A stretch of DNA of 64,000 nucleotides from NCBI GenBank assembly GCA_035544015.1, contig DATKIP010000093.1, forward strand, positions 65,156 through 129,155. Direction: 5' to 3'. The stretch's first letter is position 1; each line of letters starts with the position of its first letter. The notes below the pieces were generated by a model. It was given only the letters and a program-made list of their open reading frames with translations. It was not told the origin of the DNA and did no database searches. Positions 16,443 to 55,482 of the stretch are shown piece after piece. The translations under genes were made by a program, and so were the position numbers. Source of the DNA: Candidatus Saccharimonadia bacterium. Lineage in GTDB: Bacteria; Patescibacteriota; Saccharimonadia; UBA4664.

Positions 16443-16832
16443 TTACGCGGGGCAGGTGTTCTCCTGCTCGTCCGATGCGATCGGCACCGGCTTCTTGGCT
16501 TCCCACAGCGCGACCAGCTTCTTGCCGCAGGCCGCGGCATCGGATTCGGTGTCGAAGTGGCCGGCCAGATCGTAGGTCCGAAACTCCTTGCCCGTCACGT
16601 CGGCCGTCACGAACCACTGCCCGGAGAGCGGCGACTGCTGGACCTTGATGCTCTTCACCTGCGCGGCCGGGATCGAACCATCCGAGTAGACGCGTTCGTT
16701 GGAGCTGCGGGTGCTGGTGGGGTTCGGGGTGACGTCACCACCCGACTGGTTGCCGGACAGACCGCCATTCGCAGCGACGGCGACGCCACCCACCACCAGC
16801 ACCCCGGCAGCAATAATTCCCCTGATGCGCAT
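16443..16832 (-). CDS. small secreted hypothetical protein (paralog A)
   Basis: Start at Met with GGAG RBS. Signal/TM segment MRIRGIIAAGVLVVGGVAVAANG. C-terminal ...SDAAACGKKLVALWEAK motif shared with the neighbouring gene. Confidence 0.45.
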   Translation of the reverse strand: MRIRGIIAAGVLVVGGVAVAANGGLSGNQSGGDVTPNPTSTRSSNERVYSDGSIPAAQVKSIKVQQSPLSGQWFVTADVTGKEFRTYDLAGHFDTESDAAACGKKLVALWEAKKPVPIASDEQENTCPA

Positions 16833-16985
16833 AACACGCTCCAATGCAAGAGCTCCACTGCGGGTTACCCGCAGATCGTCCCGAAACGGAAACGACGTTC
16901 TGTTGATACTACAAAAAAGCCCAAAACACAACTAATTGCCGTCCAAAAAAGGCTTCAGGGCCCGACCACCGCACCATGCCGCGCT

Positions 16986-17393
16986 CTACGCGCAGGTTCC
17001 CGCCCGCCGCCGGCTAGCCAGCAGTATGCGCCGTCCCCGGCCGAAGGCTTGGCTGCTCAGCCGCCGGGCACAGGCCTTGGCCGCCTGCCGATCGGCCAGT
17101 CCCGTCACTACCTCCAGCGGTCCGTCAACGCCCTGGGCGTAGACCACCACCCGCCAGCTCGTGCGGCTCGGCGAGACCGGCTCCTCCTTGAAATCGATCA
17201 CCGTTGCTCCCGCCACAGAATCTGGCGGCGCAGTCTGCGGCTTGGGCCGCTGAGGATCCCGGGATGGGCTCGCGATCGTCGATCGCAGGCCCGCATTCGC
17301 GCTCGTGATGGAATCCCGGTTACCCATATTCCCGACCCACACCGCAGTCGCTACGGACACTATCGCCACGGCCGCCAGGCGCCTGAATGTCAC
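16986..17393 (-). CDS. small secreted hypothetical protein (paralog B)
   Basis: GTG start with AAGGAGG RBS 9 nt upstream. Signal/TM segment (M)TFRRLAAVAIVSVATAVWVG. C-terminal ...DRQAAKACARRL motif. Confidence 0.45.
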   Translation of the reverse strand: MTFRRLAAVAIVSVATAVWVGNMGNRDSITSANAGLRSTIASPSRDPQRPKPQTAPPDSVAGATVIDFKEEPVSPSRTSWRVVVYAQGVDGPLEVVTGLADRQAAKACARRLSSQAFGRGRRILLASRRRAGTCA

Positions 17394-17544
17394 CGTCGTA
17401 CTCCTCCTTCTCGGGTTGGAAATCCTCCCGCTACCGTCCATAGCGGGAATAGGCCTCATATTTTATAGAATAACTAACATGCGAAAGCAACCATCCGTGT
17501 CCGCCACCCGAAATCGAAAGCGGCGGCTTGCGACTGCAAAACGA

Positions 17545-17610
17545 GTCTAGAATTTAGACAAACCGTCCGAACCTGAAGGTAATGACGCACTGAATGTCTA
17601 AGGTTTAGAC
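17545..17610 (+). promoter_or_regulatory. paired palindromic operator module upstream of dnaE
   Basis: GTCTAGAATTTAGAC (17545-17559) and GTCTAAGGTTTAGAC (17596-17610) are 7+1+7 palindromes with centres 51 bp apart. GTCCGAAC (17565-17572) lies between them. The identical architecture recurs at 28797-28864. Confidence 0.5.
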
Positions 17611-17688: not shown

Positions 17689-20600
17689 GTGCCGGAAACA
17701 CAAACAGCGAAACCACAATTTGTCCACCTGCACAATCACAGCCACTACTCCCTGCTCGACGGCCTCCAAAAGGTCCCCGGCATGCTCGATCGCGTGCAGG
17801 AGCTCGGCATGACCTCGGTGGCGCTCACCGATCACGGCACCATGTCGGGCGCCATCGAATTTTACAAAGAAGCCAAAAAGCGCGACATCAAGCCAATAAT
17901 CGGCGTTGAAACCTACGTGGCGCCGCGCGGCCACCTCGACAAAGCCGGCCGCCAAGACGCCAATCCCTACCACCTCATCCTGCTGGCGTACAACAACGTC
18001 GGCTACCACAACCTCATGAAGCTCGTCACCATCGCGCAGCTCGAGGGGTACTATTACAAGCCGCGCATCGACCGCGACCTCATTACCCAGTACCACGAAG
18101 GCCTCATCGCGCTTTCCGCCTGTGCCGGTGGCGAGGTGGCTCAAAACATCCTCAACGGCAACCTGGCCGAGGCGCAGAAAGTAGTCGAGTGGTACGACGC
18201 CACCTTTGGCCGCGGCAATTATTACCTCGAACTCCAAGCGCACGAGCACCAATGGGAGACCCAAAAACAAATTAACGATGCCAAAATCGAGCTCTCGCGC
18301 AGCACTGGCGTGCCGCTCGTAGTCACAGCCGACGCCCACTACAGCGCCCACACCGATCGCGAGGCGCACGAAATCTTGCTGTGCGTCCAGACCGGCAAAA
18401 CCATCAGCGACGCCGGCCGCATGACCATGGACATGGACCTCTACGTCACCAGCCCCGACGAAGTCATCGAGCGTTTCCAGCGCGTCCCCGAGGCCTACGA
18501 AAACACGGTCAAAATCGCCGAACGCTGCGATGTGGAGCTTGAATTGGGCCGCATTCTCATCCCCACCTTCGAAGTCCCCGAGGGGTTCAAGGATGAGCGC
18601 GAATACCTGCACAGCCTGTGTTGGCGGGGGCTCGCCTGGCGCTACGGCGGCATTCCCAAAGAAGACATCGCCCACATTACCGAAGTCAAAGCCAAAACTC
18701 TCGTCACCCCCGAAATCGCCGAGCGCCTCGAGTTTGAGCTGTCGGTCATCGGCCGCATGGGCTACGACGGCTACTTTCTCATCGTGTCCGATTTCATCAA
18801 CTGGGGCAAAAACCAGGGCATCATCTTTGGCCCCGGGCGGGGGAGTGCGGCCGGTTCCATCGTGTCCTTCGCCATGAACATTACCGACCTCGATCCGCTC
18901 AAATACGACCTGCTGTTTGAGCGCTTCCTCAACCCCGACCGCATCTCCATGCCCGACATCGACATCGACATCCAAGACACCCGCCGCGGCGAAGTCATCG
19001 ACTACGTCACGGAAAAATACGGCCAAGAACGCGTGGCGCAGATCATCACCTTCGGCACCATGGCCGCCCGCAACGCCGTGCGCGACACCGGCCGCGCGCT
19101 CGGCTACTCCTACGCCGAGGTCGACGCCATTGCCAAGCTTGTACCGCAGCCGGTGCAGGGCCGCCACATCCCCCTGGCCGTAGCCGCCGGCCTCAAAACC
19201 GGCAAAGGCAGCGAGCAGCGCCCCGACCCCGAGCTTGTGAAGGAATACACCACCAACCAGCGCGCCCGCGAGCTCATCGACCTCGCCATCCGCCTCGAAG
19301 GCACCATCCGCTCAAACGGCGTGCACGCGGCCGGCGTGGTGATCGCGCCCGAGCCGATCGTGGGCTACACGCCGGTGCAGCGCGCCCAAAAAGGCGGTAC
19401 CGCCACGCAGTACTCCATGGGCCCCATCGAGGAGCTCGGCCTGCTCAAAATGGACTTCCTCGGCCTCTCCAACCTTACCGTCATCAACAATGCCCTGCGC
19501 ATCATCAAACGCGTCTACGGCGCCGCCATCGACATTGCCGACATCCCGCTCGACGATCCCAAAACCTTCGAGCTCCTCTCGCGCGGCGACACCACCGGTG
19601 TCTTCCAGGTAGAATCCGCGGGCATGAAGCGCTACCTGCGCGACCTCAAGCCCACGGTCTTCGACGACATCATTGCCATGGTAGCGCTCTACCGCCCCGG
19701 CCCCATGCAGTGGATCGACGAATTCATCGGCCGCAAGCACGGCAGCATCCCCATCACCTACGTGCACCCCTCCATGGAAAACGCGCTCAAAAACACCTAC
19801 GGCGTGCTCGTGTACCAAGAGCAGGTCATGCAGATCTCCAAAGAGGTCAGCGGCTTCACCGGCGGCGAGGCCGACACCTTGCGCAAAGCCATTGGCAAAA
19901 AGAACGCCGCCATGATGGCCAAAATGAAAACCAAATTCGTCGAAGGCGCGGTCAAAAACGTTGGCGCCGATCAAAAAATCATGGAAGACTTCTGGGCCAA
20001 TCTCGAAGATTTCGCCGCCTATTGTTTCAACAAATCCCACGCTGCCTGCTACGGCCTCATCGCCTACCAAACCGCCTACCTCAAGGCGCATTACCCCGCC
20101 GCCTTCATGGCCGCGCTCATGACCAGTGATTTTGGCAACATCGACCGCATCGCCATCGAGGTGGCCGAGTGCACGCGCATGGGCATCCAGGTGCTGCCCC
20201 CCGACGTCAACGAGTCGTTCCACGAATTTGCCGTGGTCAAAGAGTCGGGCAACATCCGATTTGGCCTTTCGGCGGTCAAAAACATCGGTTCCGGCCCCAT
20301 CGAGACCATCCTGGCGGCGCGCGACGAGGGCGGCCCCTTTGCCTCTGTCGAAGACTTTGCCAAGCGCGTCAACGCCCGCGAGTGCAACAAAAAAGTCTGG
20401 GAATCACTCACCAAATGCGGTGCCTTCGACGCGCTCATCGACGGTGACCGAGCTCAGCTTCTCTTTAACATCGAAACCATCACCGCCTTTGGCGCCAAAG
20501 CCCAAAAAAACGCTCTCTCGGGCCAAATCGACATCTTCGGCTCGCTCGGCGTCGAAGAAAACCTGCCGGCTCTTCGGCTCGAATCCGCGCCGCACCCTGC

Positions 20601-21321
20601 CTCGACCCGCGAGCAGCTCGCCTGGGAAAAGGAGCTCCTCGGCCTCTACATCTCGCATCATCCCCTCGACGAATACGCCGGCTACCTCGCCGACACCTGC
20701 GTGCCCATCAGTGACATCACGCCTTCGTCGGACGGCAAACTCCTGCGTATCGGCGGTATTATCACCACGGTGCGCAAAATTCTCACGAAAAAAGGCGACA
20801 CCATGGCCTTCGTGGGCATCGAAGACAAAACCGGCCTCACCGAGCTCATCGTCTTTCCCAAGGCCTTCGAAAAATCCCCCGAAGTCTTCGAGGCCGACAA
20901 CATCATCATGGCCACGGGCAAAATTTCCGCCCGCGACAAAGAAGGCCGCCTCACCGACGAGCCGAAGATGATGGTAGACGCCGCCAAAATCGTCAATTAC
21001 GACACCGCTTCCAGTCATGTCTCTACCCACGCGCCGCAGCCGGCGGCCCCAGTCGCCGCCCCGCCCGCCCGCCCAGCCGCCGCGGCATCCCCTGGCGGCG
21101 GCTACGTGGTGCTTCATCTCGCCGACCTGTCCGATCAGCAATTGCTTCACGACATCAAGCAAATCATCGGCGCTCATGCCGGCGGCGCCGAAATTTATAT
21201 CGTGGTCGGGGCCGACGCTCCCAAGAAAATCCGGCTACCGTTTAAGGTCGCCGTTTCCGAAGCACTCTTAGAGCAATTAGGCGCCCTCGTTGGCACGGAC
21301 CAAGTAACCCACGCCGCGTGA
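17689..21321 (+). CDS. dnaE: DNA polymerase III alpha subunit (DnaE1) with a C-terminal ~115-aa extension
   Basis: PHP domain start (FVHLHNHSHYSLLDG), polymerase core, OB fold. GTG start preferred because of the GAGGGGAG RBS (the track's ATG at 17653 lacks one). C-terminal Pro/Ala linker plus an extra domain. Confidence 0.9.
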   Translation: MPETQTAKPQFVHLHNHSHYSLLDGLQKVPGMLDRVQELGMTSVALTDHGTMSGAIEFYKEAKKRDIKPIIGVETYVAPRGHLDKAGRQDANPYHLILLAYNNVGYHNLMKLVTIAQLEGYYYKPRIDRDLITQYHEGLIALSACAGGEVAQNILNGNLAEAQKVVEWYDATFGRGNYYLELQAHEHQWETQKQINDAKIELSRSTGVPLVVTADAHYSAHTDREAHEILLCVQTGKTISDAGRMTMDMDLYVTSPDEVIERFQRVPEAYENTVKIAERCDVELELGRILIPTFEVPEGFKDEREYLHSLCWRGLAWRYGGIPKEDIAHITEVKAKTLVTPEIAERLEFELSVIGRMGYDGYFLIVSDFINWGKNQGIIFGPGRGSAAGSIVSFAMNITDLDPLKYDLLFERFLNPDRISMPDIDIDIQDTRRGEVIDYVTEKYGQERVAQIITFGTMAARNAVRDTGRALGYSYAEVDAIAKLVPQPVQGRHIPLAVAAGLKTGKGSEQRPDPELVKEYTTNQRARELIDLAIRLEGTIRSNGVHAAGVVIAPEPIVGYTPVQRAQKGGTATQYSMGPIEELGLLKMDFLGLSNLTVINNALRIIKRVYGAAIDIADIPLDDPKTFELLSRGDTTGVFQVESAGMKRYLRDLKPTVFDDIIAMVALYRPGPMQWIDEFIGRKHGSIPITYVHPSMENALKNTYGVLVYQEQVMQISKEVSGFTGGEADTLRKAIGKKNAAMMAKMKTKFVEGAVKNVGADQKIMEDFWANLEDFAAYCFNKSHAACYGLIAYQTAYLKAHYPAAFMAALMTSDFGNIDRIAIEVAECTRMGIQVLPPDVNESFHEFAVVKESGNIRFGLSAVKNIGSGPIETILAARDEGGPFASVEDFAKRVNARECNKKVWESLTKCGAFDALIDGDRAQLLFNIETITAFGAKAQKNALSGQIDIFGSLGVEENLPALRLESAPHPASTREQLAWEKELLGLYISHHPLDEYAGYLADTCVPISDITPSSDGKLLRIGGIITTVRKILTKKGDTMAFVGIEDKTGLTELIVFPKAFEKSPEVFEADNIIMATGKISARDKEGRLTDEPKMMVDAAKIVNYDTASSHVSTHAPQPAAPVAAPPARPAAAASPGGGYVVLHLADLSDQQLLHDIKQIIGAHAGGAEIYIVVGADAPKKIRLPFKVAVSEALLEQLGALVGTDQVTHAA

Positions 21322-28046: not shown

Positions 28047-28697
28047 GTGAGGCGGTTATTTGGCATCCTCGCGCTCATAGGCATAATCGTCTATGTTGTC
28101 CCGCACGCTAGCAACGGTGGTCCAGGCGCCACCCAAACCGGCCGGCGGGGGATCGTCACGTCCCAAGCCCGCATCGATTACTCCAAGGTGACAAGTCGAC
28201 TCACGGAGCTAAAGCTCGGTCCGCTAGTGACGAGCCAAAGCTCTGGCGCGCAGCGTCAGGTGGCCACCACCAAACTGCTTGCTAGTGGCCTCGTCACCGC
28301 GGTCAAGTACGATCAGCGCATTCGATGCTACCCGCTCGATGACCTCAGCCAGCGTGCCGCCAAGATGTATTGGGGGCTCGTGCAGTTCTTGCAGGTGATC
28401 GTAACCGCCGGTTTCGTCGTCGGGGTCAGCTGCGTCAATACGGGCCACGATCGTGACGGTGCACTCCATCCGTTATGGCGGGCTATGGACATAAACTACG
28501 TCAATGGTCGGCGGGTTAATACTCGTCTCGATCAAGTCTGGCGGTTTGCGCGCTGGGTGATGGGTCTCAATACGGCCGATCTACCCACCGAGGTCGGTAG
28601 CGACAGCGATTTCATTGACCACAGTCGTATGAAAAAGGCCGGCCGAGGCCCGTTTATTGTCGATCCAGCCCATTTTCACTTCGGGTATCGGCTATGA
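28047..28697 (+). CDS. membrane-anchored LAS/M15-like zinc peptidoglycan hydrolase (motif-based)
   Basis: N-terminal TM. HPLWRAMD fits the H-x6-D metal motif. C-terminal DPAHFHFGY resembles the M15 EPWH(F/Y) motif. Confidence 0.45.
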   Translation: MRRLFGILALIGIIVYVVPHASNGGPGATQTGRRGIVTSQARIDYSKVTSRLTELKLGPLVTSQSSGAQRQVATTKLLASGLVTAVKYDQRIRCYPLDDLSQRAAKMYWGLVQFLQVIVTAGFVVGVSCVNTGHDRDGALHPLWRAMDINYVNGRRVNTRLDQVWRFARWVMGLNTADLPTEVGSDSDFIDHSRMKKAGRGPFIVDPAHFHFGYRL

Positions 28698-28796
28698 CCT
28701 GCCCGTCAACTTCCGGCGGCCCGCCCGTGCCCGTGATCGGGTGCGGGCGGGCAATCCGGCCTGGGCGCCGCACCGGCATTACGTGCGCTATGTACA

Positions 28797-28864
28797 ATGT
28801 CTAAAGTTTAGACATTTGCCGTAGGTCCGAACTCAAATAACCGTAAAAAGTCTAAACTTTAGAC
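28797..28864 (+). promoter_or_regulatory. paired palindromic operator module upstream of the wHTH regulator and clpC
   Basis: ATGTCTAAAGTTTAGACAT (28797-28815, perfect 9+1+9 palindrome) and GTCTAAACTTTAGAC (28850-28864), centres 51 bp apart. GTCCGAAC lies between them (28825-28832). The second palindrome ends 13 nt before the regulator ATG. Confidence 0.5.
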
Positions 28865-28876
28865 CACATCACCTTC

Positions 28877-29206
28877 ATGAACACCCTCCAGCCACCAAAA
28901 ACCACCCGCCAAGTCCGCACCAAGTACACGCCGCTCAGTTACGAGCGCCTCGCCATCCTTCTCGCCGTCGCTGCGGGTCCCATCGATTGCGCCCGCATCG
29001 CCGAGCAAGTACTGGCCGATACTGTCGCCAATATCGTCCTCAAGAAAAGTACAGCCTATTATCTTATAAGTGAATTGACCACTACCGGTCACCTGCAAAA
29101 ACACGGTTCCTACACCCTCACCGCCAAAGGTCGCCAAACCTTGCAACGCGAGCTCGCGCGCCTCGAACAACAGCGCCGTCTCCTGCTCCAGCGCCTACCG
29201 CAATGA
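28877..29206 (+). CDS. small winged-helix transcriptional regulator (PadR/ArsR-like)
   Basis: 109 aa. LSYERLAILLAVAAGPIDCARIAEQV...STAYYLISELTTTGHL...YTLTAKGRQTL has a wHTH pattern. Occupies the CtsR-equivalent position upstream of clpC. Confidence 0.5.
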   Translation: MNTLQPPKTTRQVRTKYTPLSYERLAILLAVAAGPIDCARIAEQVLADTVANIVLKKSTAYYLISELTTTGHLQKHGSYTLTAKGRQTLQRELARLEQQRRLLLQRLPQ

Positions 29207-29209
29207 CGT

Positions 29210-29248
29210 TTAGCACTCGCTTGCATAGAGTGCCAACAATGCTATACT
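29210..29248 (+). promoter_or_regulatory. CIRCE-like inverted repeat (HrcA operator) with embedded promoter upstream of clpC
   Basis: TTAGCACTC-gcttgcata-GAGTGCCAA (29210-29236) matches 17/18 of the CIRCE consensus TTAGCACTC-N9-GAGTGCTAA. -35 TTGCAT lies inside the spacer, then 16 nt, then -10 TATACT (29243-29248). Confidence 0.5.
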
Positions 29249-29317
29249 ATCTGCATATCTCGCGTACTCTTGACTACCGGATGCCAGCGTGGGAGGGTAA
29301 CGGAAAGGACATCAATC

Positions 29318-31849
29318 ATGGCCGATTTTAGCTCACAGTTCGATCGGTTCACCGAGAACGCCAAACGCAGTCTCGAAAACGCCGAGGCCATCGCCACCCA
29401 AATGGGTTCCAGCTACGTCGGCACCGAGCACATTTTGCTCGGCGTGCTGCAGCAAGAGACCTCCATCGGGGCCAAAATTCTCAAAAATGTCGGCGTCACG
29501 TTCGAAAAAGCCCAGCTGGTACTGAGCTTCTCGCAGCAGTTAGCCGGCGGCGGCTACAAAGGCGCCTCCGAAACCGCTAAGCGTACGCTCACCTACAGCA
29601 TGCGCGTGGCGAAGGAATTCGGGCAGCCTTACTGCGGTACCGAGCACATTTTGTTCGCCATCCTGAGCGAAAAAAGTGCGCGCGCTATCAGCTTGCTCAA
29701 AAACGACCTCCAGATCGACCCCGCTATCATCCGCGGTGAGCTCGAAAACTACCTCGGCAACCAGCAATACTTCTATGCCGACGAAGAGCGCGGCGGCGCC
29801 CGTACCGCCAAGGGTGGGGGAGGCGGCAACGCCGGCAAATCCAAAACCCCCGCGCTCGATCACTTTGGCATCGATCTCACCGCCAAAGCCGGCGACAACA
29901 AGCTCGATCCCATGGTGGGCCGCGAAGCCCAGATTAGCCGCGTCATTTCTATCCTCGGCCGCCGCAGCAAAAACAACCCCGTGCTCATCGGCGAGCCCGG
30001 CGTTGGCAAAACCGCCATCGCCGAGGGCCTGGCTCAGCGCATCATTGCCGAGGAAGTCCCCGAAATGCTTCTGCGCAAGCGCCTCGTCATGCTCGACCTG
30101 GCGTCGGTCATCGCCGGCACCAAGTACCGCGGCGAATTCGAAGAGCGCCTCAAAAAAATCCTCGACGAGGCCAAAGCCACTCCCGAGGTCATCCTCTTCA
30201 TCGACGAGCTCCACACCGTGGTGGGCGCCGGCGCGGCCGAAGGCGCCATCGACGCCGCCAACATCCTCAAGCCCGCGCTCAGCCGCGGCGAAATTCAGGT
30301 GATCGGCGCCACTACTCTCGACGAATACCGCAAGCACATCGAAAAAGACGCCGCCCTCGAGCGCCGCTTCCAGCCGGTGCAGGTCCCCGAAACCACGCCC
30401 GAAGAGACCGTCGACGTGCTGCGCGGTTTGCGGCCCCGTTACGAAGAGCACCACCGCGTCGAAATCAGCGACGAGGCCATCGAAGCCGCCGCCAAGCTCG
30501 CTAAGCGCTACGTGGCCGACCGTTTTCTGCCCGACAAGGCCATCGACCTCATCGACGAGGCCGCCAGCCTCGCCCGCATCAAGCGCGGCGGCTCCAGCAA
30601 GGCTTTGCGCAACCTCCAAAAACAAGTAAGCGAAATCCGTGACGACATCGAAAACGCCGTCTTCGACCAAGACTTCGAGCTGGCCGCTCGCCTCAAGACC
30701 CGCGAATCGGTCATCCAAAACCGCCTCAGTCAGCTCAAACTCAAAGAAGGCGCCGCCGATGCCGCCGTGCGTATCACCGCCGAAGACATCGCCCAGGTCG
30801 TCTCGCTCATGACCGGCATCCCCGTCACGCGCCTCATCAAGACCGAAGTCGACAGCCTCCTCAAGCTCGAAGACTCGCTCAAGCGCCGAGTCATCGGCCA
30901 AACAGAAGCCATCGAAGCCATCTCCCGCAGCATCCGCCGCTCGCGCACCGGCGTGTCCGACGCCCGCCGTCCCATCGGCAGCTTCATTTTCCTCGGCCCC
31001 ACCGGCGTCGGCAAAACCGAGCTCGCGCGTATGCTGTCCGAGGAATTGTTCCACGACCGCGATGCCATGATCAAGATCGACATGTCGGAATTCATGGAGC
31101 GGCACAACGTTTCGCGCCTCGTCGGCGCCCCCGCCGGCTATGTCGGCTACGACGAAGGTGGTCAGCTCACGGAGCAGGTCCGGCGCAAGCCCTACAGCCT
31201 CATCCTTTTCGATGAGCTCGAGAAGGCCCACCCCGATGTGTTCAACATGCTGCTGCAAATCCTCGAAGATGGCTATGTCACCGACGCCAAAGGCCGCCGC
31301 GTCGACTTCCGCAACACGGTCATCATCATGACCTCCAACGTCGGCGCCTCCGACATGAACCGCGAAGTCGAGCTCGGTTTCCGCACCGAAACTCCGAATG
31401 AGGAAAAAGCCCTCGAGGCCACTCACCTCAAGGTCAAAACTAAGGTGCTCGAAGACCTGCGCAAGCAATTCCGCCCCGAATTCCTCAACCGCATTGACGG
31501 CACACTGGTCTTCAAGACGCTCAGCCAAAACGACATCAAAAAGATTCTTGTGCTTCAGCTGACCGACTTGAGCAAACGCCTCGATGAACAAGATCTCAAG
31601 CTCAAAGTGACGTCCTCGGCCAAAGGACTCCTCGTGGAGCGTGGCTACGACACCAAACAGGGCGCCCGCCCGATGCGCCGTGCCATCCAGGATCTCCTGG
31701 AAGACCCGCTCGCCACGGGGCTGCTCGACGGCCGCTTCGAAGCCGGTGATACCATCACCGCCACCCGCCGCGGCGACCAAATCCACCTCACTTCCGAGCG
31801 GCCTGCCCCCTCGCCAACCACCACGGTCGACGAAGCGGGCCGCGCCTAA
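29318..31849 (+). CDS. clpC: ATP-dependent Clp protease ATP-binding subunit ClpC
   Basis: Clp_N repeats, two AAA+ modules ([15 protein letters not shown]; [11 protein letters not shown]), UVR-like coiled coil. Start at the ATG with GGAAAGG RBS (29318) rather than the track's 29270. Confidence 0.9.
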
Positions 31850-31956: not shown

Positions 31957-33660
31957 TTACGCCACCGGACCAGTCGGGCCAGCCGAGCGGGGGTGCGCCG
32001 ACTGGAGCTCGGCGATTTGTTGATCGCGCTGAGCTATCAGTTCCAGCAGAAACTGTTTCTCCAGCTGCTGTCGAGTCCGATCGGGAGCCGGCATCGAAGT
32101 CGGCAAATCCCGGATCAGCCGACTCACGACCTCGGCCGCGAGCCGCGGAGCATGGGGTAGCTCCAGGGCCAGCCGTTGGCGTATCTGTTTGCCCAAGGGC
32201 AGGAGCCGGATATAAGACGTAGACCGTCTGCCTCCGCGCTCGATCATCTTGTGCTCGGCGAATGTTTTGAGCAGCGCCGACACGGCTGTACTCCCCACCG
32301 AACCGAAAAAGGGCCGAACCAAGGCCAGACTCGCCTTCCGAAGCATCTCTCCTGGTTGAGCCTCGATGTACAGAAGCAGTTGATACAGATGACCCCTGGT
32401 GCCATACGCGATCCCCGTCAGGGTCTCGGCTAGCTCGGCCGCCGCTGGCAGTCGTTCGTAGCGCTCCAAGTAGCTTCCGTAGTACTCTAGTGCCGCGAGA
32501 CCAGCAGGCGTAAGGACTATGAACAGAGGGGGAGTCTTCGGGATCGTGCTCTTCGTGATGGTAATGAGTTCGGCCGCCTGAAGGCTCGGCAGCAGCTGGC
32601 GAAGAACAGAATTCGGAAGACCGGTGATGGTCTCCAGCGGCTTGAGCTGCGGGCAGGACCATCGCTCCCCCCGCTGCCGAATAAACCGAAGAATCATCAG
32701 ACCCTCCGGAGCTCGGCTGAGGCCACCCATCGTTCCGTCCAGATCGGCTTCATCGAAGACGCCGACTACCGCAGGGGAGGTGGGAAGCACCATATCGGCT
32801 CTGGAGCCATACTGGTGCCACAGCTCCCGCCCAAGCGCGGTCCAGCTTAACGAATGGCCGTCTCCCACTCTCTGCCATGTCAGGTAACCGCCGGCCTCAC
32901 TGTCTTGAAGTAGTTTGCGGATCCACCATTCACTGATGTCGCCGCACCACTCCTGGAGAGTATCGAGCGAGAGGTCCGACACCTCCCCCTCCCTGTCGGC
33001 TAGATGACGCAGGAGGACGACGGTCAGGAGCGGGGAGAAGAGCGTCGCCACCGACGGGGAGAAATCCGCCTCGATCGTAGCCTGCCAAGCAGTCTGAAAT
33101 GCCATCACCTCCCGTTTCAGGTCGTCGGTCTCACCATCCAGGAACACTTCGAGCTCCTGGATGGCGCTCCAGCCGGCTGGAGTTAGCCGCGTGTAGGCCC
33201 GAGTCTCTTTTGAGACGCGGGGCCCCCGATCGATCAGTTGGTGGCTTTCGGCAAATCGCAGCGTGCGGACCTCCAGCCGGCTATACCTACCGCCAAGCAG
33301 TGGGCTCGGCTGGATATTCATGACCGGCCCGCAGAGACCCTCTGGCTGGAGCGCCAGCCAAGACAGCAGGAAGTAGAGCTTGCGTAGGCTGGGCCGGAGC
33401 AGGCGCCCGCTTTGGTTGAGGGCGGTAAGGGTACCGATCGGCTCCTGGGCCGCCGCTAGTTCGAAGACACCCCCCTTCGGCAGCGCTAGCTGGACTCCCT
33501 GATTCTGTAGGTAGCCGATGAGTGCGGCCGGAGTAGAAAGCTCCAGTCGCCGCATGAGCCGGTAGAGCTCGGGCTCGGATGGTGGTGCCCCCAGCTCAAG
33601 GAGGCCGGCTTCGAGCCGCCGTTGTCGCTCTACCGCCGTTAGGCCTATCCTGCGGTTCAT
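31957..33660 (-). CDS. hypothetical protein with about four tandem winged-helix-like modules and a C-terminal coiled coil
   Basis: Start at Met with GAGGTGG RBS. Recurrent helix-turn-helix-wing pattern ending in (Y/F)xxLTPAG/LLPLG (YTRLTPAGWSAIQELE, FIVLTPAGLAALEYYG, YIRLLPLGKQIRQRL). Codon usage (AGG, ATA, CTA) and GC are below the local norm. Confidence 0.55.
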   Translation of the reverse strand: MNRRIGLTAVERQRRLEAGLLELGAPPSEPELYRLMRRLELSTPAALIGYLQNQGVQLALPKGGVFELAAAQEPIGTLTALNQSGRLLRPSLRKLYFLLSWLALQPEGLCGPVMNIQPSPLLGGRYSRLEVRTLRFAESHQLIDRGPRVSKETRAYTRLTPAGWSAIQELEVFLDGETDDLKREVMAFQTAWQATIEADFSPSVATLFSPLLTVVLLRHLADREGEVSDLSLDTLQEWCGDISEWWIRKLLQDSEAGGYLTWQRVGDGHSLSWTALGRELWHQYGSRADMVLPTSPAVVGVFDEADLDGTMGGLSRAPEGLMILRFIRQRGERWSCPQLKPLETITGLPNSVLRQLLPSLQAAELITITKSTIPKTPPLFIVLTPAGLAALEYYGSYLERYERLPAAAELAETLTGIAYGTRGHLYQLLLYIEAQPGEMLRKASLALVRPFFGSVGSTAVSALLKTFAEHKMIERGGRRSTSYIRLLPLGKQIRQRLALELPHAPRLAAEVVSRLIRDLPTSMPAPDRTRQQLEKQFLLELIAQRDQQIAELQSAHPRSAGPTGPVA

Positions 33661-33781
33661 AGGGAATCCACCTCTCTCGGCCGGAGAAACTGCACTTGGG
33701 AAGGGCCATCCGTTGTCGCAATGAACTGCATTTCGACTCGGGATCATTCCATTATGCCGTCAAATGCGGCCACCGCAAACT

Positions 33782-35635
33782 CTAGCGGTATCCCGAGGCC
33801 TGTAGCTCAAAGAGCTCATGGTACCGCCCACCCAGCGCCACGAGCTGTTCGTGGCTCCCGCGCTCCGTAATGGTGCCGTTCTCAAGCACAATAATCATGT
33901 CGGCGTTGCGCACCGTGCTAAACCGATGCGAGATAATGATGGTTGATTTCTCGCGCTGGTTGGCCGCAATTTGCTCAAAGATCTCAAACTCGCCTTTGGC
34001 GTCAATCGCCGACGTCGGCTCATCGAGTATCAGAATGCTGGCATCGCGGTAAAACGCTCGCGCCAGCGCGATGCGCTGCCATTGCCCGCCCGACGGCTCA
34101 ATGCCGTTCTTGAAACTGCGATTGAGAATCTGGTCGTACGTATGCGGATACTCCTCGATAAAGCCGTTGGCGCCCGCCTCCTCAGCCGCTGCCCGCACTT
34201 CGGCCGAATTGGCCTTGGTGGCGGCCCGGCCGAGCGCGATATTGTCGCGCACGCTCAAGGAATCGTAGCGGTTAAAATCCTGAAACAGCGCCCCGATGCG
34301 TCGGTACCAGCTGGCTGCATTGATCGCGCGCAAATCCTGGCCATCCACCAGAATTCGTCCCGACGTCGGATCGTAGAGCCGCAAGAGCAGTTTAATAAGC
34401 GTAGTTTTGCCGGCGCCATTCGCCCCCACGATCGCCAGGCCCTCCCCGGGCTCGAGCACAAACGACACCTCCCGCAACACCTCATGCTCGCCCCCGGGGT
34501 AGCGAAAACTTACCTTCTCAAATTCAATCCGGGGCGGCGGCCCGGCCGGTTCGAGCACCACCGGCTCGGCCGCCTCGGGCAGTCGCGGCTGAAGCGCCAT
34601 CATCTCGAAGTAATCATTCACATACAAGCTACTCTCCTGCATCGTGTGCAGGTTGCGCACGAGACTCGAGCCAGCACTGGCGTAGTTGTCAATCACCTGG
34701 CGATAAAACACGAAGCTCCCCAGACCCGACCCGCGCGCCATCACGCGCAGGAGCAACCAGGCCTGCGACCCCACGCTCACCACAATGTCGAGCACGCCGG
34801 CAATGGCCCGCTGCTTTTGAGCGCGCCGCTCGATACCAATTTGAGCCAAATGCGCCGCTCGGTAGTGCTGCTCCCAGCGTTTGATGAGCGCGTTTTTGAG
34901 CCCGTACAATTTAATTTCCCGCAGGCTGATCACGTTCGACAGCAACCCCCGCAGGTACCACTGCAGCCGCCAGTCGTTGCCGCGCTCGTCCCAGCTGCGC
35001 CATTGCGCCATGCTCGTGCGCACCTCGATCACGAGCACCGGAATCAGCCCCAGCGTAATCGCCAGCGCAATCAACGGCTCGAACGCCACCAGCGCAATCG
35101 CCGTCGACACCAGCTGCACCACACTATTGCCCGCCATCAAAAAATTGCGGTTGAGTCGCCGCATCGATGACAAATTCTGACTAATCTTGTTGAGCTGGTT
35201 ATTGAAGGCCTGGTCTTCGTAATAGGTTTGATCGAGCGCGTGAACCTTTTCAAACAGACTCCGCTGCACAAACAAATCAAACTGCATACCGAAAACATCA
35301 TCGAGATAAAAACTCCAGTAGCTCGTTTGGTTAATCACAAATTGCAACAAACCAATCGCCACCATGAGCCACAAAAGGCCCACAATCGGTCCCGGATGCG
35401 CCACGCGCTCAGCGATGCCGCCGAGCACCAGCGCCACCAAAAAGGCGTTTAGGAGGGGCAAAAGACCCTGAACCACCGTTATTACTACCTGCAACACATA
35501 CAGTCGCGGCGACACCCGCCAGTTCATAGCTACTACCCGGCTCAGCGTGCGTGAAAAGCTGCCGACACCGCGCAGGCTGACCCTCAATTTGCTCATAATC
35601 ATAGCTCCTACACTAGCACAATTGCGTGTTCGCAT
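33782..35635 (-). CDS. ABC transporter, fused permease/ATP-binding (type-I exporter, MsbA-like)
   Basis: Six TM helices followed by Walker A GANGAGKTT, signature SGGQWQRIALAR, Walker B ILILDEPTSAID. N-terminal start uncertain (35602 or 35635). Confidence 0.8.
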   Translation of the reverse strand: MRTRNCASVGAMIMSKLRVSLRGVGSFSRTLSRVVAMNWRVSPRLYVLQVVITVVQGLLPLLNAFLVALVLGGIAERVAHPGPIVGLLWLMVAIGLLQFVINQTSYWSFYLDDVFGMQFDLFVQRSLFEKVHALDQTYYEDQAFNNQLNKISQNLSSMRRLNRNFLMAGNSVVQLVSTAIALVAFEPLIALAITLGLIPVLVIEVRTSMAQWRSWDERGNDWRLQWYLRGLLSNVISLREIKLYGLKNALIKRWEQHYRAAHLAQIGIERRAQKQRAIAGVLDIVVSVGSQAWLLLRVMARGSGLGSFVFYRQVIDNYASAGSSLVRNLHTMQESSLYVNDYFEMMALQPRLPEAAEPVVLEPAGPPPRIEFEKVSFRYPGGEHEVLREVSFVLEPGEGLAIVGANGAGKTTLIKLLLRLYDPTSGRILVDGQDLRAINAASWYRRIGALFQDFNRYDSLSVRDNIALGRAATKANSAEVRAAAEEAGANGFIEEYPHTYDQILNRSFKNGIEPSGGQWQRIALARAFYRDASILILDEPTSAIDAKGEFEIFEQIAANQREKSTIIISHRFSTVRNADMIIVLENGTITERGSHEQLVALGGRYHELFELQASGYR

Positions 35636-35667: not shown

Positions 35668-37014
35668 ATGGCAAAACTTTCTACCAAATATGTCTGCCAA
35701 ACCTGCGCCGCCGTTTATTCCCGATGGATGGGTCGTTGCGAGCAATGCGGCACCTGGAACTCGCTCGTCGAAGAAGTGCAGGCTGCGTCGGCCGGCGGTT
35801 TCGGCAAGACGCGCTCCGCCGCCGCGCTCAAGCCCACCACCATGGCCGACGTTACCGCCGAGCATTCACCGCGCCGCACCACGGGCCTGGCCGAAGTCGA
35901 CCAGGTACTGGGCGGCGGCCTCGTGCCGGGTTCGGTGATCTTGCTCTCGGGTGATCCCGGCATCGGCAAGAGCACCCTGGTGCTGCAGATCGCCGCCGCC
36001 GTGGCCAGCCGCGAGCGCGTGCTCTATGTGAGCGGCGAAGAGAGCACAGCGCAAATCCGGCTGCGAGCCGAGCGCCTCGAGCTCGCGGGCAGCAGCCTGG
36101 AGCTCCTCGCCGGCACGGGCGTGGACGCGATCGCCGCGACGATTGATCAGGGCGACTACGGCCTCGTGATTATCGATTCCATCCAAACCATGGCTGTAGA
36201 GGCGCTCACCGGCTCGCCCGGCACCGTCGGCCAAATCACCGCCAGCGCCCAGGCGCTCACGGCCGTGGCCAAGCGCCGCGGGCCGGCCATGCTCATCATT
36301 GGTCACGTCACCAAAGAGGGCAATATTGCCGGGCCCAAAATTCTCGAACATCTCGTGGATGTCGTGTTGTACCTCGAAGGCGAGCGCTACGGCGCCTTCA
36401 AGGCCCTGCGCGGCGTTAAAAATCGGTTTGGTTCCACCAGTGAGGTCGGCATCTTCGAAATGGGGGAGCACGGCCTCGTGCCCGTCCCCAATCCGTCCGA
36501 GGCCCTGCTCGCCGAGCGCCGCCCGGCCTCCGGATCGGTGGTGCTGGCCACTCTCGAGGGCAGCCGGCCGTTACTCGTTGAGGTCCAGGCGCTGGTCTCG
36601 CCCACGCCGTTTGGTTACCCCAAACGCACCGCCGTTGGCTTTGACCTCAACCGCCTCAACTTGCTCGTAGCCGTGCTGGGTAGACGCGCCGGTCTCAATT
36701 TGAGTTCATCCGACATCTATGTTAATGTAGTGGGCGGATTGCGGGTCACCGAGCCGGCCGCAGATTTAGCAATTATTTTATCCGTAGCTTCGGCTCTCCA
36801 AGACACGCAGGTCCCCCAAGGGCTCGTCGCCTTCGGCGAAGTAGGACTCAGCGGCGAAGTTCGGTCAGTGGCCCAGTCCGCCGTCCGCGTGGCCGAGGCC
36901 GCTCGCCTCGGGTACAAATTCGCCATCGGACCGGCCTTTGGCGCGGCCCGCGGCCTCACCGGAGTGGCCGACGTCGCTGCGGCCGTCAAGCTCCTGCGTA
37001 CCAGCAAGCATTAA
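35668..37014 (+). CDS. radA: DNA repair protein RadA/Sms
   Basis: N-terminal zinc ribbon CQTCAAVYSRWMGRCEQCGTWNS, RecA-like Walker A GDPGIGKST, KNRFG motif, Lon-like C-terminal domain. Confidence 0.9.
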   Translation: MAKLSTKYVCQTCAAVYSRWMGRCEQCGTWNSLVEEVQAASAGGFGKTRSAAALKPTTMADVTAEHSPRRTTGLAEVDQVLGGGLVPGSVILLSGDPGIGKSTLVLQIAAAVASRERVLYVSGEESTAQIRLRAERLELAGSSLELLAGTGVDAIAATIDQGDYGLVIIDSIQTMAVEALTGSPGTVGQITASAQALTAVAKRRGPAMLIIGHVTKEGNIAGPKILEHLVDVVLYLEGERYGAFKALRGVKNRFGSTSEVGIFEMGEHGLVPVPNPSEALLAERRPASGSVVLATLEGSRPLLVEVQALVSPTPFGYPKRTAVGFDLNRLNLLVAVLGRRAGLNLSSSDIYVNVVGGLRVTEPAADLAIILSVASALQDTQVPQGLVAFGEVGLSGEVRSVAQSAVRVAEAARLGYKFAIGPAFGAARGLTGVADVAAAVKLLRTSKH

Positions 37015-38240
37015 TGCAAGGATTTATTTTCATGACTCCCACAATGACCGTTTCTCTCGCCGTCGTCAGTGTATTACTAATAGTACTAGCGCTGCTGCGG
37101 CTGCGGCATGTCTCGCTGCAGGGGCTCGTATTTGGCCTCAGCGGAGCCATAATCGGCCTGCTGCTGGGCGCTCTGGCCAGCGTTCCGCTCAGCAAACTGC
37201 CCGACCCGGTCGGTAATGTCTTGCCGCTGGCGGTATCGCTGGCGCTGACGCTCATCGTGATGGGCGCCGTGCTTTCACGGCGGCGGGCTTTGCTGGCCGC
37301 CATGCCGTTTCTGGATGTTAAATCGCGCACTGTGGTTCAGCCGGCCGTAGCCGAGCCCGAACCCGTTGCTCCAGCTGAGCCCACGCTGCCCCAAATTCTC
37401 GTCGACACCTCGGTGATCATCGACGGCCGCATCGCCGATATTGCCGCCGCCGGCTTTGTGCCCGGCCGCCTCACGGTGCCGCGGTTTGTGCTGGCCGAGC
37501 TCCAAAACATCGCCGACTCCGACGACGCCATGCGACGGGGCCGCGGCCGCCGGGGCCTAGACGTGCTCAACACCCTGCGCGAGCTACCCGATGTCGAGAC
37601 CTCGATCATCGAGGACGATGTCCCGGGCGTACGCGAAGTCGACGCCAAGCTGGTGGCCCTGGCTCAGCGATTTAGCTGCAACGTGCTCACTACCGACTAC
37701 AATCTCAACCGCGTCGCCCAGATTCAGGGCGTGCGGGTGCTCAACGTCAATGAACTTTCCAACGCTATCCGCCCGGTGGTGCTGCCCGGCGAGGAGCTGC
37801 TAGTCCGCGTGGTCCAGCCCGGCAAAGAGCGCAACCAAGGTGTGGGATACCTGGCCGACGGTACTATGATCGTCGTTGAAAACGGCGACAAACTCATCGG
37901 CCAAGAAGTGTCTACCGAGGTCACCCGCGTCTTCCAGACCGTCGCCGGCAAAATGATCTTTGCCGTGCCGCGCCATGGCCTGGGCGGCGCCCCGGCTGCG
38001 GCGGCCACGCCCATCGCCGCCGACCCCACCACCACGCCGGCCCCCGCTGCCGCTCCCGTAGCCCCCGCGGCTGCCCCCACCGCCCCCCCGGCCGACAAAG
38101 ACGCCGCCCAGCGCAAGAATCGCTTCGGCCGCCACCGGGGGCGCGGCAACGGCAACAAACCGGGCCCGGCGGCTGGTGGCCAAGACGGCCAGTCGCTCGA
38201 AGACCGTGTCATCGCCGCCACCACCCCGCCAAACGAGTAA
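37014..38240 (+). CDS. PIN/TRAM-domain membrane protein (YacL-like)
   Basis: Two N-terminal TM helices, PIN domain (ILVDTSVIIDGRI...), TRAM domain (EELLVRVVQPGKERNQGVGYLADGTMIVVENG), Pro/Ala- and RGG-rich tail. Directly downstream of radA. Confidence 0.8.
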   Translation: MQGFIFMTPTMTVSLAVVSVLLIVLALLRLRHVSLQGLVFGLSGAIIGLLLGALASVPLSKLPDPVGNVLPLAVSLALTLIVMGAVLSRRRALLAAMPFLDVKSRTVVQPAVAEPEPVAPAEPTLPQILVDTSVIIDGRIADIAAAGFVPGRLTVPRFVLAELQNIADSDDAMRRGRGRRGLDVLNTLRELPDVETSIIEDDVPGVREVDAKLVALAQRFSCNVLTTDYNLNRVAQIQGVRVLNVNELSNAIRPVVLPGEELLVRVVQPGKERNQGVGYLADGTMIVVENGDKLIGQEVSTEVTRVFQTVAGKMIFAVPRHGLGGAPAAAATPIAADPTTTPAPAAAPVAPAAAPTAPPADKDAAQRKNRFGRHRGRGNGNKPGPAAGGQDGQSLEDRVIAATTPPNE

Positions 38241-54796: not shown

Positions 54797-54867
54797 CGCA
54801 CCCCGGGGCTAGCACTCGCATACCACGAGTGCTAAAATAACCCCAGAATGTGAACAAGGAAGCCCCC

Positions 54868-55482
54868 ATGAAGCCAACCAGCCAATCCATTTTGATCCCC
54901 ACCGTCATCGAGAAAACTCCCGGCGGCGAGCGCGCTTACGATATCTATTCGCGTTTGCTCAAAGAACGCATCGTGTTTCTGGGCACCGGCATCGATGACA
55001 CGGTCGCCAACCTCATCGTGGCGCAGTTGTTGTTCCTCGAAAGCGAAGATGCCAGCAAAGACATTCAGCTCTACATCAACTCACCCGGCGGGCAAGTGTA
55101 CTCGGGCCTGGCCATCGTCGACACCATGCACCTCATCAAGCCGGCCGTTTCCACTATCGTGGTGGGGGTGGCGGCCTCCATGGGTGCCATCATTGCCTCT
55201 CAGGGTGAAAAGGGCAAGCGTTTCGCGTTACCAAATGCTAAGATAATGATGCACCAGCCGTCCTCAGGCTTTGAAGGCACTTCGGCCGATATCGAGATCT
55301 CGGCCCGCGAAGTGCTCAGCCTGCGTCACCGCATCGACGAAATGCTAGCTGATGCCACGGGTCACCCCATCGAAAAGATCAATCACGACACCGATCGCGA
55401 TTATTGGCTGACCGCGCAGGCCGCCGCCGAGTACGGCGTGATCGACAAAGTCATTACCAAATCCGCCTCCGCTACGAAATAA
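54868..55482 (+). CDS. clpP: ATP-dependent Clp protease proteolytic subunit
   Basis: Catalytic triad context ([16 protein letters not shown], and the conserved D). Start at the Met with GGAAG RBS. Confidence 0.9.

Follow-up and report, generated by a model that had tools for sequence, protein, structure and literature searches.

Introduction

CtsR, the class III stress gene repressor of the Firmicutes, is a small winged-helix protein that regulates its own operon (ctsR-mcsA-mcsB-clpC) through a direct heptad repeat. Short PadR regulators, such as Lactococcus lactis LmrR, CdPadR_0991 (5dym) and the Clostridium thermocellum protein 1xma, likewise carry a winged helix-turn-helix (wHTH); they consist of about 110 residues forming the N-terminal wHTH domain and one C-terminal helix, their genes are preceded by inverted repeats, and the usual PadR motif is ATGT-N8-ACAT. 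As dimers they bind an inverted repeat in their own promoter and are released from it by a ligand. A further PadR-like protein, AspA, binds centromeres. The HrcA repressor, which acts at the CIRCE inverted repeat, has dnaK and groE as its classic regulon. In the genome-reduced Mycoplasma, CIRCE precedes clpB and lon, which are AAA+ chaperone/protease genes (PMC4245973).

The DNA analysed here (the window, 64 kb in all) comes from a Candidatus Saccharimonadia genome in which a gene for a 109-aa wHTH protein occupies the ctsR position. A sequence-only reading of the window had proposed that this protein is an autoregulated controller of clpC, analogous to CtsR and not homologous to it.

Results

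A wHTH gene occupies the ctsR position

The neighbourhood of the regulator gene is composed as follows.

28877..29206, plus strand: ORF of 109 aa, the regulator gene
29318..31849, plus strand: clpC (Pfam domains Clp_N twice, AAA, UVR, AAA_2 and D2-small)
31957..35635, minus strand: 3.7-kb insertion between clpC and radA, encoding a 596-aa protein with a weak wHTH match and a 617-aa ABC exporter (33782-35635)
35668-37014, plus strand: radA (Pfam; syntenic with relatives)
37014-38240, plus strand: PIN/TRAM gene, yacL-like (Pfam; syntenic with relatives)

The ORF is exactly the one given by the sequence-only reading, and its placing of a wHTH gene in the CtsR position of a clpC-(insertion)-radA-PIN/TRAM order is confirmed by the ORF and Pfam assignments. 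The true clpC start is the ATG at 29318 (MADFSS..., kept in relatives). In contrast to the ctsR-mcsA-mcsB-clpC operon, mcsA and mcsB are absent and only 111 bp, devoid of any ORF, separate the regulator gene from clpC. Rfam and tRNA scans returned nothing at the locus. The block between clpC and radA is missing from two relatives (L001 and L003), in which radA follows clpC directly, so it was rightly called an insertion. No GTCTAAA palindrome lies near this block. The ABC exporter that it carries was considered as a target of the LmrR/LmrCD kind and rejected, since no palindrome is associated with it, in contrast to LmrR-type systems, and the block is absent in relatives. On the other side of the regulator gene, between it and nusA, lies a 216-aa ORF (28047-28697) whose product has a hydrophobic segment at its N terminus and matches no Pfam family; this slot is variable, with no gene in L001 and one for a dCMP deaminase in L003 and L004.

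Adjacency of the wHTH gene and clpC extends to six genomes, down to 40% identity of the regulator protein. All six are closely related: their ClpC proteins are 88-98% identical, NusA is retained upstream, and radA and the PIN gene follow wherever the contig is long enough. The adjacency is broken in the two most distant homologs for which context is available: in L037 the downstream gene is ddl, and on the P0018 contig the neighbour of the regulator gene is a convergent Obg-like gene (the contexts of P0018 and P0017 were read from gene tables only). Co-conservation with clpC, on which the sequence-only reading had staked its proposal, therefore holds in the six close relatives and fails in L037 and P0018. 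The position of the regulator beside clpC probably reflects gene order shared by closely related genomes.

A divergent short regulator of the PadR type

A Candidatus Saccharimonadia MAG encodes a hypothetical protein identical to the 109-aa sequence. A word-indexed search with this sequence returned only four further homologs; when 1.84 billion representatives were searched exhaustively with a profile, 68 were found at E<=1e-3, 14 of them at E<=1e-10. The family is small and lineage-restricted, so far confined to a group of Candidatus Saccharimonadia. Taken alone, the window protein reaches no Pfam or NCBIfam threshold; its best matches below the cut-offs are TIGR03433 padR_acidobact (E 0.017), DUF4364 (E 0.035) and HTH_45 (E 0.068). 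The PadR family PF03551 is not matched by the window protein at E<=0.01 and is matched at that level by 5 of 19 close and 32 of 47 wider homologs. Profiles built from the homologs point to PadR as well: searched against the PDB, the profile of the 19 close homologs retrieves almost exclusively PadR-like and LmrR chains (top matches E 3e-4 to 3e-3), and the 47-member profile matches PadR chains down to E 6e-11.

The AF2 model (pLDDT 77) folds into three helices, a beta wing and a single long C-terminal helix (helices at residues 22-32, 41-48, 57-69 and 83-106; strands at 73-75 and 78-81), with H3 as the recognition helix. The features that define the PadR fold, namely a three-helix winged HTH, a beta hairpin and a single C-terminal dimerisation helix, are all present in this model. 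Compared over whole chains with Foldseek, the model comes closest to short PadR proteins, namely 5dym (TM 0.67/0.75), 1xma and LmrR (4zzd among the best), and MarR structures match over part of the target only. AspA chains also occur among both the fold and the profile matches. CtsR does not appear among the Pfam matches at E<=0.1, and the 109 residues comprise the wHTH alone, without the S24 peptidase autocleavage domain of LexA/SOS-type regulators. The structure prediction, together with the profiles, bears out, on the PadR side, the assignment made from the letters of a PadR/ArsR-like wHTH protein lacking similarity to CtsR. We thus regard the 109-aa protein, on its profile matches and predicted structure, as a divergent short PadR-type winged-helix regulator. 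It resembles LmrR, 5dym and 1xma in length, in domain arrangement and in profile, although its sequence is too divergent to pass PF03551.

A paired palindrome accompanies the gene

Upstream of the regulator gene, the following elements are found.

28799..28813: distal candidate operator, palindrome GTCTAAAGTTTAGAC, 7-N-7, perfect over 15 bp
28850..28864: proximal candidate operator, palindrome GTCTAAACTTTAGAC, perfect, 51 bp from the distal one and ending 12 nt 5' of the ATG
28865..28870, plus strand: position of the -10-like hexamer, aligned with relatives; CACATC in the window (degenerate)

The palindromic pair described in the sequence-only reading is therefore real, with both members perfect and 51 bp apart. 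With up to two mismatches allowed, the 64 kb contain four copies of the motif where 0.04 would be expected, and a third mismatch adds no further occurrence. The comparison covers seven loci with DNA, the window and six relatives (L001, L003, L034, L036, L037 and L042; 38-69% protein identity), and the pair lies upstream of the homolog in all seven, with a spacing of 49-52 bp that is mostly 51. In the relatives the proximal palindrome fills the spacer between a -35-like TTGCAA and a -10-like hexamer (TACCCT, TACTCT, TACCTT, TATCAT or TAGTTT), and at all homologous loci the start codon falls exactly 6 nt after this hexamer (by alignment, and separately for L042), so that the conserved layout reads -35, 17-nt spacer, -10, 6 nt, start codon. 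A start codon this close to the -10 element would imply that the regulator gene is transcribed as a leaderless mRNA.

The half-site differs from genome to genome (GTCTAAA, TTCTAAA, GTCCYAA, GTCYCAA, GTCTTAA and GTCTCAA), and the sequence of the recognition helix varies between genomes alongside it. In L037 the same operator architecture is kept though the gene downstream is ddl, which assigns the operator to the regulator gene and not to clpC. Retention of the dual operator in all seven loci and its co-variation with the protein argue strongly for autoregulation: as the sequence-only reading supposed, the 109-aa protein very probably regulates its own gene through the palindrome pair. Co-occurrence and co-variation likewise suggest that it binds this DNA, where it would act as a repressor.

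Probable autoregulation is shared with CtsR, and inverted repeats in front of the gene are shared with short PadR regulators, consistent with autorepression by a dimer. The operator itself departs from both systems. It is an inverted repeat in contrast to the direct heptad repeat of CtsR, and a 7-N-7 palindrome (GTCTAAA-N-TTTAGAC) in contrast to the usual PadR motif; furthermore, unlike in short PadR regulators, the operator is doubled, with 51 bp as the fixed spacing, and the mRNA is apparently leaderless.

On either side of the proximal palindrome, the window (28838-28870) has the hexamers CGTAAA and CACATC, much poorer than the TTGCAA and TACCCT of relatives, so the promoter position there is extrapolated by homology of position. 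A consensus sigma-70 scan of 28600-29400 returned no promoter. The regulator may be weakly expressed in the window genome, or a different promoter may be used.

Two further repeats were noted. An octamer, GTCCGAAC, is present in the spacers of both palindrome pairs of the window (28826-28833 and 17565-17572), separated from the distal palindrome by 12 and 5 nt respectively, and resembles a half-site (GTCTAAAC). Between the PIN and PBP genes of a relative (L001 15868-15933, equal to L008 1237-1302) lies another, imperfect palindrome pair, TTCCAGTATATGGAA / TTCCATAAACTGGAA, with a spacing of exactly 51 bp, which may be a chance occurrence or the site of a related factor.

Additional sites are few and not conserved

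The two remaining occurrences of the motif in the window form a second pair, located before dnaE.

17545..17610: second candidate operator pair, GTCTAGAATTTAGAC / GTCTAAGGTTTAGAC, one mismatch each, same 51-bp spacing
17689..21321, plus strand: dnaE (alpha subunit of DNA polymerase III), a candidate additional target in the window genome

This pair lies 79 nt upstream of dnaE in a divergent region with small minus-strand genes on its other side, and it could serve these divergent genes (16986-17459) rather than dnaE. The upstream regions of dnaE in four relatives (L038-L041), one of them the genome that carries the recJ site described below, are all without the pair. Control of dnaE is therefore not a conserved feature. 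The minus-strand stretch 16443-17459 holds two small, apparently paralogous ORFs, divergent from dnaE, which each have a hydrophobic segment at the N terminus and match no Pfam family. The corresponding slot holds different minus-strand genes in each of L038-L041. In all four of these sequences gene calling divides dnaE into two or three successive ORFs; the splits are probably assembly frameshift errors and not real split genes.

The genome of L001 has one extra pair. It precedes recJ, with rel/spoT next in line, and its proximal site is followed by a canonical TACCCT. At L009 908-2744, where the pair stands before recJ and then rel/spoT in the relative's genome, the leader is about 95 nt long and contains an 11-codon mini-ORF (MGVMMYIFAYK). 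A scan of GTDB genomes with a degenerate double palindrome recovered the L001 site at the regulator gene and the one at recJ, its seven other matches being unrelated repeats. The same scan of JGI metagenomes gave 19 loci, mostly tandem repeats or unrelated sequence. Only L023, L029 and L032 look genuine among them, with downstream genes that are cut off or ambiguous; the plausible L029 site falls between dnaK and a NYN-domain gene. L022 was rejected as an operator site, as the repeats of this phage-like contig (DnaB) fall within coding sequence. No palindrome is present at radA or recG in the window, in contrast to LexA/SOS-type regulators, which have sites before recA, uvr and other repair genes. 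Since the extra sites are single observations that are not conserved, the regulon beyond self-control appears from these scans to be small and unconserved.

clpC and clpP carry CIRCE elements

The regions 5' of clpC and clpP contain a different inverted repeat.

29210..29236, plus strand: CIRCE, TTAGCACTC-GCTTGCATA-GAGTGCCAA, 17/18 to consensus; presumed HrcA operator of clpC
29221..29248, plus strand: predicted clpC promoter, -35 TTGCAT (29221-29226, in the CIRCE spacer), 16-nt spacer, extended -10 TGcTATACT (29240-29248)
54809..54835, plus strand: second CIRCE, CTAGCACTC-N9-GAGTGCTAA, between tig and clpP, overlapping TGcTAAAAT
54868-55482: clpP

These are the only two matches in the window to the CIRCE consensus TTAGCACTC-N9-GAGTGCTAA (taken from PMC4245973), each with one mismatch, against 0.02 expected, and both overlap a core promoter. 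The first begins 4 nt after the stop codon of the regulator gene. The clpC promoter was read by eye and is backed by conservation, CIRCE and TGnTATACT being kept 5' of clpC in five relatives (L001, L003, L034, L036 and L042); the consensus scan missed it because the -35 element matches at only 3/6 positions. No terminator was found between the regulator gene and clpC.

Neither the interval between the wHTH gene and clpC nor the region before clpP contains a GTCTAAA palindrome. The CtsR box (RGTCAAA-NAN-RGTCAAA) gives four matches with three mismatches, against 2.4 expected, which is the chance level, and none is near clpC or clpP. In contrast to the CtsR regulon, clpC and clpP of the window thus carry CIRCE and no CtsR box, and in contrast to the classic HrcA regulon (dnaK/groE) the CIRCE elements precede the clp genes. 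No hrcA-sized candidate occurs in the 64-kb window, and we infer that hrcA is present elsewhere in the genome. Literature searches on Saccharibacteria with PadR or HrcA returned nothing relevant.

Given the conserved CIRCE at clpC and the second one at clpP, the heat-shock control that CtsR exerts in Firmicutes is most simply supplied here by HrcA, which would occlude the two promoters. Because clpC has its own promoter with CIRCE, the 109-aa protein is probably not the clpC controller. The part of the sequence-only reading that cast it as a replacement for CtsR is thus not supported, given the CIRCE-promoters of clpC and clpP and a palindrome that goes with the regulator gene and with targets unrelated to it.

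Discussion

The similarities to CtsR are of size, fold class, position and probable autoregulation: the 109-aa gene encodes a small winged-helix protein immediately upstream of clpC in a clpC-radA-PIN/TRAM setting, and differs in lacking a CtsR domain. We favour, with moderate confidence, the explanation that the protein is a PadR-type autorepressor, that clpC is separately under HrcA/CIRCE control and that the adjacency of the two genes reflects synteny. Dimers would bind the two 15-bp palindromes, about five helical turns (51 bp) apart. The proximal palindrome sits in the -35/-10 spacer of the gene's own promoter in relatives, so that the bound protein would shut off its own leaderless transcript, and the distal site would probably add cooperativity. 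Transcription of clpC would start from its own extended -10 promoter, buried in the CIRCE inverted repeat; as clpP likewise has a CIRCE, the clp genes of this lineage would fall within the HrcA heat-shock regulon. The regulon of the 109-aa protein would be evolutionarily fluid, always including its own gene and, beyond that, the dnaE/divergent small-gene region in the window genome and recJ-rel in a relative.

An unlikely alternative would retain part of the CtsR analogy, with the wHTH gene and clpC forming one operon in which the PadR-like repressor sets the level of read-through, HrcA and CIRCE provide a second, internal promoter together with a roadblock, and the 109-aa protein is a CtsR-like co-regulator. 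Dual control by CtsR and HrcA exists in some Firmicutes, the two genes here lie on the same strand with a gap of 111 bp, and read-through from the wHTH promoter into clpC is possible because no intrinsic terminator was found. Persistence of the adjacency in six genomes, to 40% protein identity, also agrees with an operon, but these genomes are closely related and generally syntenic, as the 88-98% identity of ClpC indicates, and the two most distant homologs with context have lost it. The distribution of the sites is also at odds with dual control, the operator recurring at non-clp genes while clpP has CIRCE and no palindrome. Moreover, HrcA bound to a CIRCE only 4 nt past the stop codon would block read-through without stress.

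The extra sites suggest another role, which we consider improbable, in which autoregulation is feedback only and the protein serves chiefly as a lineage-specific switch for DNA-metabolism genes, independent of LexA. The operator pair upstream of dnaE in the window, the proximity of radA, and the pair with a canonical -10 upstream of recJ and rel/spoT in the L001 genome fit such a role. However, dnaE is without the pair in four relatives, including the very genome with the recJ site, window radA and recG have no site, the plausible L029 site adjoins dnaK and a NYN-domain gene, and the pair near dnaE could serve the divergent minus-strand genes (16986-17459). That the palindromes are not operators of this protein at all, belonging to another factor or forming a structural, partition-like site as with AspA, is very hard to credit. 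The presence of AspA chains among the fold and profile matches is what recommends it, yet the pair accompanies the gene into another context (L037), changes in sequence with the protein and keeps a fixed register with promoter-like hexamers and the start codon, and the neighbourhood is one of chromosomal housekeeping genes without par genes. Autorepression by a PadR-type protein, with the clp genes under HrcA, is the reading that we retain.

The locus adds a new, divergent member to the PadR family, with a double operator and an apparently leaderless layout; a PadR autoregulator is in itself ordinary. A bolder conjecture, to which we give little weight, is that a Saccharimonadia-specific PadR-like repressor of this two-operator (51-bp), leaderless design might link dnaE and recJ-rel, and possibly clpC by read-through, to a signal, and so act, in these reduced genomes, as a lineage-specific substitute for missing classical stress or damage regulators.

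To our knowledge, transcription factors are very few in bacteria of the Candidate Phyla Radiation such as the Saccharimonadia, and operators are known for almost none of them. The present locus yields two testable regulator-operator assignments, a PadR-like autorepressor with a conserved double operator and HrcA/CIRCE for clpC and clpP. It also corrects an inference from position, in that a gene in the CtsR slot need not be a CtsR analogue. Finally, the CIRCE elements at clpC and clpP suggest that the HrcA regulon of this Saccharimonadia lineage includes the clp genes.
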